NCBI GenBank assembly: GCA_963717525.1
Contig: OY970343.1
Span: forward strand, 2,176,001 to 2,240,000
Direction: 5' to 3'
DNA: 64,000 nt
From: an uncultured Methanoregulaceae archaeon
Lineage (GTDB): Archaea > Halobacteriota > Methanomicrobia > Methanomicrobiales > Methanospirillaceae
This document shows, piece after piece, positions 885 to 64,000 of this stretch. The position numbers and the translations under genes were made by a program. Under the pieces are notes generated by a model. The model was not told the origin of the DNA. It saw only the letters and a list, made by a program, of their open reading frames with translations, and searched no databases. Every line of letters starts with the position of its first letter. Position 1 is the stretch's first letter.

Positions 885-1136
885 GGAGGGGGTCGGGCGG
901 TGTACTTGAGGGTGATATCCCACGCCTTTTCATTTGTCCCGATCCAGCAGATTTACGAGAAAGATATACCTGACCCGATGCTCTGGATTGCAGTACTCAT
1001 GCGGCCGCATCGCATCAAAAAAGTGGTCCGACCCCCTCCCTGATAATTTTGTAAAAGGGCAAAATTTTGGATTTTTACGAGAGAGATACTCTATGTTTAT
1101 ACATGGAGGTGGTGGAGGGGGTCGGATGGTGTACTT
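885..1136. repeat. Locus A: three 23-bp GGAGGGGGTCGG-core motifs (+,-,+)
   Basis: 885-907 GGAGGGGGTCGGGCGGTGTACTT (+); 1017-1039 revcomp GGAGGGGGTCGGACCACTTTTTT (-); 1114-1136 GGAGGGGGTCGGATGGTGTACTT (+). Confidence 0.95.
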
Positions 1137-1660
1137 TGGAGATTTCGGCGTTCCGGGACAGATCGCTGTAATGGCCCTATAATGTCTGATCCCAGAGTCC
1201 AGTGAGTGCCCGGAAGCCCCCCGTACAGAACACCGCTAAAGGGGAAAAATAAGTCTATTTTACTGTGTTATTTTTGGATTTCACCCGAAAACTGGAAACT
1301 TTTTTCCTGCGGTGGACAAACAGATGCCAACAGGATGTTCACCAGCCATTATGGGGGGTAAACGGAGCTCGGATAGGGCCCGGATTGGGAGGGGGTGAGG
1401 GACGATTCCGGGCGGGACAAGGAATATGCGATCAGTATGAGGTTGCCCACCCCCTGATGGGGGTCGCTCGGCCGCCTCGTCGGGGCCTCGCTGGGCGAGG
1501 GAGGTTTCTGATTATGGCTTGCTAATTATGGTTCTGTCAAGTCTGCAGGAGTTAGAACCTTGTGCAGTCTCTGTCAAAAGTCGGGAGGTAAAATAACGAT
1601 TTTGCAATTCAAATAAATACTAATCTATATATGGATAGCAACCTCACGGGACATTTATTA

Positions 1661-1996
1661 ATGGTCATCACTTGGGAAGAAGTAAAAAAATACCTCAAAG
1701 AAAAATGCCTTATTACCGTTGCCTTTTTCGTTGAGGTTGTTTTCGAATTAATACGTGTAACTATCGTATTAGTTGGTTTATGGATATTTTTACTCATAGC
1801 CAACTGGTTGGGCTTTGAAAATAATTTTTACATTGAAATGCTTCATCAATTTTCATTTATCGGATTTTCTATAATTTATTTGATCGTACTAGTTTATGGA
1901 ATCATAGACTTCTACAGAATCTTTAATAAGCATCATGAACACGATTCTGTACAGTTAAATCTGGATGAAGTAGGAAGTGGCAAAAATGGGGTTTGA
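1661..1996 (+). CDS. hypothetical membrane protein (AT-rich islet)
   Basis: ORF (upstream ATG at 1631 also possible) with 2-3 hydrophobic segments, AT-rich codons. Confidence 0.65.
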   Translation: MVITWEEVKKYLKEKCLITVAFFVEVVFELIRVTIVLVGLWIFLLIANWLGFENNFYIEMLHQFSFIGFSIIYLIVLVYGIIDFYRIFNKHHEHDSVQLNLDEVGSGKNGV

Positions 1997-2396
1997 TTGT
2001 TATCCTATAGATCATCCCGAATTAAAAAAACGCCTTGAGGCATACAAAAAGATAGGTTTCAAGAGAAACTTTGCGTTGTCGATTCTGTACATGGCAGCCG
2101 TTTTCATTAATGGGTTCCTTGTCTTGGCAATAATCAACGCAATCCACCCATTGGGTTTGGCCTCCACTTCCGCGACATTGTTAGCTGTTGCTGTTTATCT
2201 AACGGTAACGATTGTTGACTTCATTTTGTTATACCACAACAAAATCACACCAGCAATATTAACTTTGATTGTCATATTTGCATGGATTTTACTCCCATAC
2301 CAGTTTATTTCAGGGAAAACCATATTGGATAAAACAAAAACCCCGATGGAAATTAGAAAAAGTATTTTCCACAAGGTATACCAAAATACGGGCTAA
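1986..2396 (+). CDS. hypothetical membrane protein (AT-rich islet)
   Basis: ORF overlapping previous stop, 3 hydrophobic segments, AT-rich codons. Confidence 0.65.
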
Positions 2397-20814: not shown

Positions 20815-20946
20815 ACGGTTGTGTAAGTCCAGAAAAGTGCAGTATGCTTACTGACTCTCTGTAATCCCAAAGCCTAAGTTTTGAGGCCGTGCCAAAAACG
20901 GCACGTCGGACTTACATCTGTCAGCACCCTGTTAAAAAGTGCTGTC
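20815..20946 (-). ncRNA. structured 5' leader of rps15 (probable S15-Methanomicrobia-type r-leader)
   Basis: Several helices upstream of rps15: GUGCCG-UUUU-UGGCAC hairpin, UGUAAGUCC/GGGAUUACA, CUGAC/GUCAG. Confidence 0.65.
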
Positions 20947-28820: not shown

Positions 28821-29070
28821 AAGTACACCGCCCGACCCCCTCCACTGCATAAATCCTGTTCCCGTTACCGGTTGAAGTAATTTATCGTCAGAAAAAATGC
28901 CGTTTTTCATGCCAGGGGCAGCAGGAATTCATGGAGGGTTGGAGGGGGTCGGACCACTTTTTTTGTCCGGGCGCCGGCATCAGGGACCGGAAAAAATGCG
29001 AAATAGCGACGTAAATAGTGGGATAGGGCATGGGACAGCTATCGCAGAAGTACACCATCCGACCCCCTCC
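28821..29070. repeat. Locus B: three 23-bp GGAGGGGGTCGG-core motifs (-,+,-)
   Basis: 28821-28843, 28941-28963 and 29048-29070 are exact reverse complements of 885-907, 1017-1039 and 1114-1136. Confidence 0.95.
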
Positions 29071-61103: not shown

Positions 61104-64000
61104 TTGCACATCACAGAGCTGGAGATAGATAATTTCAAGTCTTTTTCAAAAAAGACAAAAATTCCCTTTTTAGAGGGTTTCACCGTAATATCAGGCCCGA
61201 ACGGCTCCGGGAAGAGTAATATCATCGACTCAGTCCTTTTTGTCCTGGCACTTTCGAGTTCCCGCAACCTGCGTGCCGAGAAACTCACCGATCTCATCAA
61301 CCTCAACTCCGGGAAAAATACGGCTGAGGTTGCCATCGAGTTTTCCGACGGGACAAAGATCCGGCGCCGGATCAAACGGACCGGCAACGGTTATTACAGC
61401 TACAACTACCTAAACGACCGGCTCTGCAAGCAGAGCGACATTGTCGACCACCTCGCAAAGTTCGGTATCATCCCGCATGGCTACAACGTCGTGATGCAGG
61501 GCGACGTGACCCGGATCATGGAGATGAGCGATTTCGAGCGCCGGAAGATCATCGATGAGATCGCCGGCGTCTCCGAGTTCGATACAAAAAAGCAGCAGTC
61601 GCTCTCCGAGCTTGATGTAGTAAGAGAGCGCATCGAGCGCGAAGAACTCCTGCTGATCGAACTTACCAAACGGGCAAACGAGCTGAAAAAAGAGCGCGAA
61701 CACGCGCTCGAATACCAGAAGTGGCAGAAGGAGCTCGGCTTCTACCAGGGGTGCCGGTCCGCCGCCCAGCTCCGCGGCAAGGAGAAGGAGAGGGCTACGC
61801 TCCTTGCGTCTGCCGAAGAACAGAAAATTAAAATCTCCCGGATCGAGGCCGACCGGGGCATCGAGGAGAACGAACTCTCCTACCTCGGGGCCGACCTTGC
61901 AGATATCGATGAGCTCATCAACAAGAAGAGCGGGCCCGACTACCTGAAGCTGATAGCAGACCTCGAAGAGGCAAAGAGCGGGATCAAGCTCGCGGAGCAG
62001 ACCATTGCACGGCTCAAAAAGGACAAGGAGACAAACCTCGAAGGGATCAACCGGGTCTTCGCGGACACAAAACGGGCCGAGACCCGGGTCGCAGAGCTCT
62101 CTGACCAGATCCGCACGCTTTCCATCGACCGCACGAACATCGCCATCGAAGTGGCAACCTCAAAAGCGCAGCTCGAAAAGATCGAGACCGAGCTCCACCA
62201 GTACTCCTCAGACACGGAGGAGGCCCGGCAGAAACTCTTTGCCCTGATGGAGGAGGCGGAAGCAAAGAAGGGGGAGCGCTCCGCGATCCTCCACCAGCAG
62301 GACATGCTCATCGAGAAGAGCCGGATGCGCACGAGCGAACTCGAACGCCTGATCGCGCTCCAGAAGCAGCTTGACGAGGAGTATACGGCAAAGCAGGGGC
62401 AGCTTGCGGAGAACGAAGGGGCGGTGGCCGAACTTTTGGACCGGAAAAAGAGATCGACCGGAATCTCTCCGAACTGGAGAGCAGCCTCTTTGCCCAGCGT
62501 TCGTCCCTTGAACGGCTGCGCGGGGAGATGAAGGACACCGAGCAGGATGCGATCCGGCTCGAAGCCGCACAGCAGGCCCGGGGCGAGTCCGGCGGAAAGG
62601 CGATCGAGGCGGTCAAGGCCATAGAGGGCGTCCATGGCACCATTATGGAGCTGGGCTGTACACCCCCAGAGTACGCGACTGCGCTCAATATCGCTGCGGG
62701 AAACAAACTCCAGTTTGTCGTCTGCGATACCGACCAGATCGCGGCCGATGCGATCCGGTACTTAAAAGACGAGCGGCTCGGGCGGGTTACGTTCCTCCCG
62801 CTCAACAAGCTCAAACCCCCGCAGCTGCCCCCCATAAAGGAGGCCGGTATCATCGATTACGCGGTCAACCTCCTCGACTACGATCCTGTTTATGACAAGG
62901 CATTTGCCGTTGCACTTGGGGCAACGGTCGTGGTCGATACGCTCGACCGGGCCCGGAAACTGATCGGGAAGTACCGGATGGTTACTCTCGAGGGAGAACT
63001 GCTGGAGAAGAGCGGGGCGATGACCGGCGGCTCGGCAAAGAAACCGGTGAAGGGTTTCGGGGCCGCCGTTGACGATGAGATCGTCCGGATCCGGTCGCAC
63101 CTTGCCGAACTTTCCGGCGAGGCCGCAACGATCGAGGCGGGCGTCAAACGCATGACCGAAGAGGTAGATGGCAAACGGGCGCTCCGTAACGGGATTGACC
63201 AGGACATGGCCCGGGCCGGGGCACTCACCGAGGAATTTACCCGCAGGTTCGAAGCGATCACGGTCGAGAAGCAGACGATCGAGACGGCGGTCGCCCGGCA
63301 GAGAGAGGAGACGGGCACCAGCGCGGGAGAACTGTCCGCTCTCGAAGGGGAACTCGACAAGATCACCGAAGCGATCAACCTGATCACAGCCCAGATTGAC
63401 GGTATCAAGAAAAAGCTGGACGACACCAATATCCCTGCCCTCACCGACCAGATGGAGAAGAAGAAGAAGGAGATCGAGGAGGCAGAACGGCGCCTCAGGA
63501 ACAAGGAGGCGGACATGAACGATGCCTCCCGCGAGCGCCAGCACTTCACCGCCCGGACCGGGGAACTTTCGGAGGAGCGCACCCGGCTGGACGAGCGCAA
63601 CCGGCAGATCGATGCGGAGGTGGCCGGGTCAAACGGGCAGATCGATGCCCACAAGGCCGTGATCGCAGAACTCGAGGAGAAACAGAAACAGTTCTCAGGA
63701 GAACTCGAAGGCCTGCGGAAGAAACGGGCCGACGTGTCCGGCAGCATCCATGCCTCGGAAACAAAACTGATCAAGTTCGACGCGGACAAGGAGCGTTTCA
63801 CGATCCAGCTCACCGCCCTTGAGGAGCGGGCTCAGGCGCTTGCAAACGAGATCGCCGCCCTCGTGGCCATTGTCGGGGAGGTCGAGACCGACCTGACGCT
63901 CACCGAGATCGAGAGGAAGATCGCTGATGCCGAGCTTGCGCTCCACAAGATCGGCGCCGTCAACATGCTCGCCATCGAGGAGTACGAGAAGATCCAGCGG
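61104..64000 (+). CDS. smc: chromosome segregation protein SMC (partial; frameshift in A-run ~62447)
   Basis: GPNGSGKSN Walker A, Q-loop VMQGDV, hinge GVHG..GRVTFLPL..GAMTGG, VNMLAIEEY at window end. Confidence 0.97.

Follow-up and report, generated by a model that had tools for sequence, protein, structure and literature searches.

Two intergenic regions of the window, which is the 64-kb stretch of archaeal DNA analysed here, are orphan copies of a family of triple-box arrays. The family represents an undescribed cis element and is associated with a candidate cognate protein outside all tested families. The arrays share a defined geometry, their boxes are under selection, they are linked to and co-occur with a gene encoding a small basic protein, and they are biased towards the origin of the chromosome. 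Our preferred, albeit tentative, interpretation is that these helically phased arrays are likely bound by the basic protein, which is predicted to form dimers, and that they probably serve as marks of the chromosome's origin half in its organization or segregation.

In agreement with a preliminary description of this DNA, three motif cores are found at 885 (+), 1028–1039 (−) and 1114 (+), and each of the three 23-mers has a 23/23 reverse-complement match within 28821–29070. The boxes of both loci and the motifs located midway between them are as follows:

885..907, plus strand: box 3 of locus A, L type (GC variant), with the GGGGGTC core starting at 888
951..965, no strand: ATTTACGAGAAAGAT, midpoint motif in the convergent interval of locus A (score 10.2), its strong half-site toward box 2
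1017..1039, minus strand: locus A box 2 (middle), S type
1073..1087, no strand: TTTTACGAGAGAGAT, midpoint motif in the divergent interval of locus A (score 12.9), within a 65% AT spacer
1114..1136, plus strand: locus A box 1, L type, AT variant
28821..28843, minus strand: locus B box 1, L type, GC variant
28881..28895, no strand: TTTATCGTCAGAAAA, midpoint motif in the divergent interval of locus B (score 13.8)
28941..28963, plus strand: locus B box 2 (middle), S type
29002..29016, no strand: AATAGCGACGTAAAT, midpoint motif in the convergent interval of locus B (score 7.8)
29048..29070, minus strand: locus B box 3, L type, AT variant
61104..64000, plus strand: 5' part of smc (context only); the gene-linked array and its basic gene together lie 1.6–2.5 kb beyond the window end

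The spans of the two loci (252 versus 250 bp) and the lack of relatedness between their spacers were likewise reproduced. However, to call the loci exactly mirrored, as done previously, is too strong: when both are read in the same sense, their L variants (GC/AT) are swapped, and the distances between first G residues are 81/148 bp at locus A as compared to 104/123 bp at locus B (read as box 1(−), box 2(+), box 3(−)). The spans are nearly equal because each locus combines one short and one long interval class. The spacer is AT-rich, as had been noted, at locus A (0.65), but not at locus B (0.54) or in the array at 2039.6 kb (0.50). Matches to the motif with at most one mismatch number seven in the 64-kb window as compared to 0.99 expected, and none of 100 shuffled sequences reached seven. 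The sequence 885–1136 is identical in short-read contigs from three of four runs, one of which belongs to a study that was not marked as a potential source of the assembly, the fourth run representing a diverged strain; read joints with short sides resemble cross-matches between boxes and were excluded as evidence.

Several features in the surroundings of the two loci were observed in addition. The locus A spacer 1040–1113 folds far better than its own shuffles (z −7), against the family average. A GC-rich hairpin repeat adjoins locus A (window 1440–1505) and is also present beside the array at 1858 kb; about 30 related pieces exist in the genome, skewed to the terminus half. Two AT-rich ORFs for hydrophobic products between locus A and rpl11 (window 1631–2396) look acquired and had no Pfam or NCBIfam match. 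Scanning with Rfam returned nothing at locus A or locus B, and an ordinary S15-Methanomicrobia ribosomal protein leader at window 20861–20943.

The genome of this archaeon (G000), a 2.29-Mb single contig that is 87% complete, holds six intergenic triple-box arrays rather than the two loci alone, located at 224, 1858, 2040, 2177 (A), 2205 (B) and 2242 kb. Eighteen boxes score at least 27.7 with matrices built from 16 of them, and the next best site scores 20.2. Five arrays have the order L-S-L, while the 224-kb array has L boxes only, the last of the three being in direct orientation. The genes flanking the arrays are divergent, tandem and convergent in two cases each; arrays are found upstream of the rpl11 and the tRNA-Ser/rps13 operons, and for five of the six positions an array next to the same genes is also seen in other genomes. 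MITE ends or terminal inverted repeats were absent around the six arrays, and BLAST matches between arrays are almost confined to the boxes. In this genome the motif is thus neither a MITE end nor a randomly scattered singleton; it is also present in relatives and supported by reads. As a separate observation, the genome carries a 220–240-bp MITE family with GCTCTGTAGAAA-type ends at 343, 396, 433, 579, 588 and 1878 kb. Beyond what had been described, the analysis thus adds four further arrays, a midpoint motif in both intervals and a linked gene.

The phased arms around a central near-palindrome resemble att- or res-like sites, and loci A and B are mutually inverted, as might be seen if the arrays were accessory-plus-core sites for site-specific recombination. 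We consider this very improbable: none of the nine tyrosine-recombinase genes lies within ~70 kb of any array, the spacers share no overlap sequence, and the flanking genes are syntenic housekeeping genes. Hence, the recombination site that was among the initially proposed candidates finds no support, as no integrase is near and the spacers are unrelated.

A search with a 27-letter paired pattern across 185,579 species genomes yielded 60 loci, 59 of which are titled Methanoregula, Methanoregulaceae or Methanomicrobiales, the remaining one being a short contig titled Methanothrix. A strict pair pattern matches 44 of 201 genomes of the family and none of the control. The first strict pattern overlooked variant boxes (it matched 8/24 genus genomes and 36/80 genomes), and a looser pattern matches 57/80 genomes but adds chance matches (control 0–3); by the latter, genomes contain 0–25 copies. 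Among the matches listed, the typical layout occurs in Methanoregula and two sister genera. GGGGGTC is the invariant core, whereas the following 12 bases differ by lineage. In 48 pairs of related copies, identity is 0.998 for the core, 0.94 for the extension, 0.85 for the midpoint motif and 0.80 for the spacer. Cores and extensions are thus better conserved than the spacers, which indicates selection. In some lineages near-identical copies that share spacer sequence have spread recently, in one of them within inverted MITE ends; ends of the GCTCTGTAGAAA type enclose triplets in another lineage than ours (L085, L097, L114). A description of the triple-box element was not found in the literature searched, i.e. 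mostly open-access text without supplements, and repeat tables in genome papers could mention one.

The boxes alternate in orientation, and a near-palindrome, TTTTACG-N-CGTAAAA, is placed midway between neighbouring boxes. This motif emerged from a free search of the spacers and is displaced by 4 bp to one or the other side of the centre in 79 of 98 elements. Analysis of 174 triplets, which were loosely defined and include some chance cases, revealed first-interval arms of 37 or 48–49 and 45 or 56–57 bp, the first interval being bounded by the range searched, and second-interval arms of 66/78/89 and 58/70/81 bp. The paired arms shift jointly in 11–12-bp steps, and the strong half-site points toward the middle box. 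Gene-linked loci, picked by protein alone, fall into identical classes, with intervals of mostly 80–87 or 100–107 bp, and 165–179 bp. If box centres are assumed ~10 bp 3' of the first G, a value obtained by fitting, the intervals would correspond to ~10, 12 or 14 helical turns. Locus A would then comprise 10 + 12 turns and locus B 12 + 10 turns, which would account for the spans of 252 and 250 bp.

The commonest neighbour of the elements in relatives is a member of an unannotated family of ~167 aa (16 loci). The corresponding features of our genome are located beyond the window end:

genome 2,242,076–2,241,577, minus strand: basic 167-aa gene, convergent with smc-scpA
genome 2,242,192–2,242,477, no strand: gene-linked array, 116 bp from the start of the basic gene

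Frameshifts in the basic gene and in scpA are assembly errors, as an extra base is present in all four short-read runs; smc is also broken into two frames in the assembly, at window 62528. When genes were chosen by protein and a triplet was counted at no more than one core mismatch in total, a triplet was present upstream of 43 of 55 distinct genes of the basic clade, as compared to 0/3 acidic paralogs and 1/1,970 genes of our genome. The array linked to the basic gene of this genome is among the 12 misses, its box 1 being degenerate. Twenty further gene copies added nine triplets of the short/long spacing class and one atypical triplet. Among gene-linked arrays, 35 of 38 have a promoter-like ACCACCAAGGATTT after box 3, as compared to none of 94 orphan arrays. 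One array of each type is positioned just upstream of the promoter of the basic gene.

At least three box pairs were counted in 33 of the 36 genomes that carry the basic gene, versus 1 of the 13 that lack it. This table of 49 genomes was joined by hand, scoring as basic gene a best match of E ≤1e-58 or the frameshifted copy of our genome, and four genomes were dropped. Concerning box types, 25 of 38 orphans resemble the gene-linked boxes of their own genome closely enough to fall into the top quartile. The other 13 were unmatched to the sampled gene of their own genome, e.g. in G181 (five orphans) and in G071, which proved to contain an additional gene whose box type matches; several gene-box types can coexist in one genome. 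Both co-occurrence and type matching overstate the association, because box and gene are co-inherited and kin are not independent. The commonest neighbours among 68 gene loci are a DUF4013 gene (10/68) and scpA (9/68), and the commonest locus abuts smc-scpA. The basic gene is convergent to smc-scpA and not co-transcribed with it, and most copies are located elsewhere. Since the basic gene is patchy, being absent in 13 of 49 genomes, it does not belong to the essential machinery.

The preliminary reading of the motifs as a multi-site, orientation-dependent platform for protein binding, rather than a recent duplication, is supported by these data, because cores and their spacing persist in spite of spacer divergence, the arms change in helical steps and a candidate cognate gene is linked. 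Alternatively, the basic protein could be a regulated target instead of the array binder. It might also act as a transcription regulator for which the arrays serve as looped operators or roadblocks at the operons for ribosomal proteins, a PINA-like ATPase and replication factor A. We see a slim chance for this scenario. It would fit with box 3 abutting the promoter-like motif of the basic gene itself, and with the arrays preceding the rpl11 and tRNA-Ser/rps13 operons at positions that recur in relatives. Operons of the ribosomal type are often found near the origin. However, the promoter motif is lacking from all 94 orphans, and placement between convergent gene ends is at chance level: it applies to two of the six arrays here and to 10/43 overall, as compared to 141/555 expected, i.e. 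convergent placement is not depleted.

Members of the 167-aa family are encoded by 141 of the 151 genomes of the class, mostly as acidic paralogs and with up to 16 matches per genome. In our genome such paralogs are located at 1,546, 1,689 and 1,698 kb; they have no Pfam family of their own. The basic members form a single branch (support 100/100) with clade-specific K/R residues at positions 7, 18, 49, 50, 75, 107, 109, 111 and 154. The fold is predicted confidently (pLDDT 90). Modelling of two copies gave a score of 0.69 versus 0.00 for the best control, with at least 75% of contacts agreeing between runs and pLDDT values of at least 81. The mark for the dimer score is attained by 20/30 solved homodimers and 1/23 single chains, which is roughly valid for a custom alignment, and DUF1508-like dimers may be remembered by the model. 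The basic protein is thus predicted to form a homodimer. A Foldseek search with the whole protein gave no match at E ≤0.001 in the PDB and viral libraries, and nothing was retrieved from the PDB by Foldseek with the middle part folded alone (pLDDT 68). A wide fold search had a best Z of 7.5 and returned generic helix-grip, KA1 and TBP-like rows. NCBIfam had no match for the two members scanned, the best hit of a PDB sequence search had an E value of 0.49, and PHROGs gave only weak matches. A weak DUF1508 match (best E 4.5e-5) was obtained for 30 of 54 members; it covers residues ~65–101, which form the predicted dimer interface. As to other candidates for binding the arrays, the genome encodes one histone gene, and MC1 was rejected, as PF05854 had no match in this genome while the control was positive in 2/14 genomes.

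It is also conceivable that the basic gene and its array constitute an autonomous selfish or domesticated mobile system resembling REPIN-RAYT, and that the orphans are non-autonomous copies spread by the protein. Extragenic inverted doublets with fixed spacing, several gene-box types and 0–25 copies per genome are indeed reminiscent of REPINs as characterized in the accessible part of PMC3116915. Mobility is further in line with the spacer sequence shared by copies in some genomes and with the inverted MITE ends enclosing the triplet in one lineage. Nonetheless, we regard this explanation as unlikely. Y1/HUH transposase families of Pfam had no match at E ≤1 in 54 members of the protein family. 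Spacers from 132 arrays do not exceed shuffled versions in folding (mean z −0.2 and −0.3), the two boxes of a pair are frequently unlike each other, and a general hairpin model was rejected. In our genome the spacers are unrelated, the arrays have no flanking MITE ends, and five of the six positions are kept beside the same genes in other genomes. Finally, the sites are origin-biased, whereas REPINs are reported to be randomly spread, as far as the available text of PMC3116915 goes.

Positions were determined relative to cdc6-1 in eight single-contig genomes. The terminus-most third holds 6 of 95 sites, or 5 of 70 when one close relative is left out; this count is based on unfiltered matches including a few chance ones, on contigs assumed to be whole and circular and on one approximate length, with origin placement confirmed by skew in G000 alone and with G154, G168 and G171 omitted. 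The bias is weak in G052 and G088 (not significant singly), and in the two-contig genome G168 two of six matches would fall into the terminus third, against the trend. All six arrays of our genome lie in the origin half of the chromosome, whereas long intergenic regions, taken as a control, are distributed uniformly and the hairpin repeat is biased towards the terminus (17/30). The cdc6 genes are located at 2,013–2,014 kb and 1,427 kb; the nearest array is 25 kb off, and the window arrays are 162 and 190 kb away. The canonical origin is represented by three ORBs upstream of cdc6 at 2,014.5 kb, with 0 and 2 mismatches to the consensus.

The arrays might instead be replication-control modules, namely auxiliary or dormant origins or loci titrating Orc1. 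GGGGGTC would then be an ORB G-string contacted by Orc1, with the basic protein as recruiting factor, and a role like that of the Sulfolobus ucm would fall to the midpoint motif. The core resembles the GGGGT end of the Methanomicrobia ORB (PMC4164010, in the portion available), and the G-rich strands face outward as at the cdc6 origin, where three sites likewise precede a promoter. In relatives, arrays of a subtype with the extension GCAGGGG contain an ORB core in 15/16 cases (1–5 mismatches) versus 3/116 other arrays; one core abuts the midpoint motif, and the outer core is in register with the G-string of the box. There are also precedents, at least in the accessible text of the respective reports: oriC1 of Sulfolobus is a 130-bp ORB-ucm-ORB unit with a protein site midway (PMC12141716), and oriC2 of Haloarcula is negatively controlled by an ORB-rich locus (PMC3936714). 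Moreover, the raw GC skew reaches its lowest value 2.4 kb from locus A, and the gene-corrected G-C skew is flat across the arrays, with a broad minimum at 2,256 kb. However, the gene-corrected T-A skew has a single minimum, at 2,015.5 kb, i.e. at the cdc6 origin; both corrected skews peak opposite cdc6 at 847–891 kb. With 7–8 mismatches to the Methanomicrobia ORB consensus, the six arrays are at background level (control mode 8), which rules out the window boxes as ORBs and leaves the ORB origin suggested earlier for loci A and B unsupported. Exactly two cdc6 genes are present in 53/53 genus genomes regardless of arrays, and the spacers are not consistently AT-rich (0.50–0.73 across five arrays). 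Additional origins crowded by the main one would presumably add little. On balance, a role in replication control appears somewhat unlikely to us.

Two further observations concern ORB sites outside the arrays. Three lone canonical ORBs of this genome (1,293,014, 1,487,034 and 1,806,061) each run into TATAAA, a layout similar to that of the cdc6-promoter ORB (2,014,491), and may represent Orc1-controlled promoters; the ORB at 1,293,014 is 3' of a gene whose product may resemble TBP. Another genome, G020, has on contig C1 a separate ~330-bp repeat in four copies (~586, 805, 1930 and 2104 kb; L060, L061, L215, L065), which carries ORB-like cores and many G-strings.

Returning to the preferred reading, in which the basic protein binds the arrays, each dimer may bridge a pair of neighbouring boxes with opposite orientation. 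The DNA would be bent at the TTTTACG/CGTAAAA motif halfway between them, to which either the basic protein or a host protein may bind. Bridging around a midpoint bend would explain why both arms gain or lose one turn together. Box 3 would provide the basic protein with control over its own promoter, i.e. autoregulation. The looped complexes may play a parS-like role that does not involve ParB, and SMC-ScpA might be loaded or stalled there. A more elaborate version has the new dimer folding the arrays into loops that load or position SMC-ScpA within the chromosome's origin half and thus form a ParB-free centromere, with one subclade, equipped with Orc1 boxes, coupling segregation to the initiator; as a whole, we judge this version to be doubtful. 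A partition or SMC site, listed previously, fits best among the named candidates in terms of origin bias and smc-scpA linkage, although the system is not ParABS.

Archaeal chromosome segregation has been termed rudimentarily understood (10.1101/2025.02.07.637068), and the placement of archaeal SMC at particular loci is considered an open question (PMC11840125), both according to the parts of these texts at hand. As a defined cis element, a candidate protein, a geometry and natural variants are available, binding, looping, SMC positioning and origin activity are directly testable. If instead one of the rivals were true, the arrays would represent either a module for replication control or a class of mobile DNA that relies on a non-HUH protein, neither of which has been described.

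In comparison with known systems, the six arrays differ from IS elements and MITEs by having neither terminal inverted repeats nor copies alike from end to end, and from att/dif sites of tyrosine recombinases by the absence of an adjacent recombinase (nearest ~70 kb) and of a common crossover core. The weak match to DUF1508/YegP (UPF0339) is inserted in a helix-grip-like domain (generic Z ~7) and implies no function. With REPIN-RAYT and BIME elements, as far as described in the available text, the arrays share extragenic inverted repeats of fixed spacing and alternating orientation (PMC3116915, PMC2817692) as well as type-matched single genes and lineage-specific expansions (PMC3116915). Unlike REPIN-RAYT, they have non-palindromic boxes, no hairpin and no HUH transposase, and their 3–25 copies are origin-biased and often conserved in position. 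Similar to oriC1 and to haloarchaeal G-strings, inverted G-string sites are 100–130 bp apart with a motif midway (available text of PMC12141716 and PMC3936714), and, like oriC1 with UBP, three sites precede the promoter of the putative cognate gene, which encodes a small basic protein predicted to be dimeric (PMC12141716, same portion). In contrast to oriC1, the window arrays have no ORB palindrome, are not beside orc1/cdc6, and occur in many copies with strict 11-bp phasing. UBP was not among the fold matches listed for the basic protein.

Closer in kind are archaeal proteins with many chromosomal sites: SegB of Sulfolobales (10.1101/2025.02.07.637068) and TrmBL2 of Thermococcus, which provides roadblocks for Smc-ScpAB (PMC11840125), are site-specific binders that loop DNA or position SMC, according to the accessible parts of both sources. 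SegB sites differ in that they are mostly intragenic and accompanied by SegA (10.1101/2025.02.07.637068, same part), and a phased multi-box array is absent from the available descriptions of SegB and TrmBL2. The basic protein gave no family match and no clear fold match. The remaining comparison is with ParABS. PF02195 (ParB) had no match in our genome, while the control was positive in 10/14 genomes, and no ParA-like gene is among the recurrent neighbours within 0.5–1.5 kb. Unlike ParABS, the unit is an alternating triplet of asymmetric boxes with midpoint motifs instead of a single palindromic parS, and the basic protein belongs to no known family. Nevertheless, like parS sites, the arrays are multi-copy and origin-biased, with one of them placed beside the putative cognate gene; their gene has a genomic link to smc-scpA, reminiscent of ParABS with SMC loading; and, similar to parS of P1, which has a central bend introduced by IHF, they possess phased arms around a central motif.
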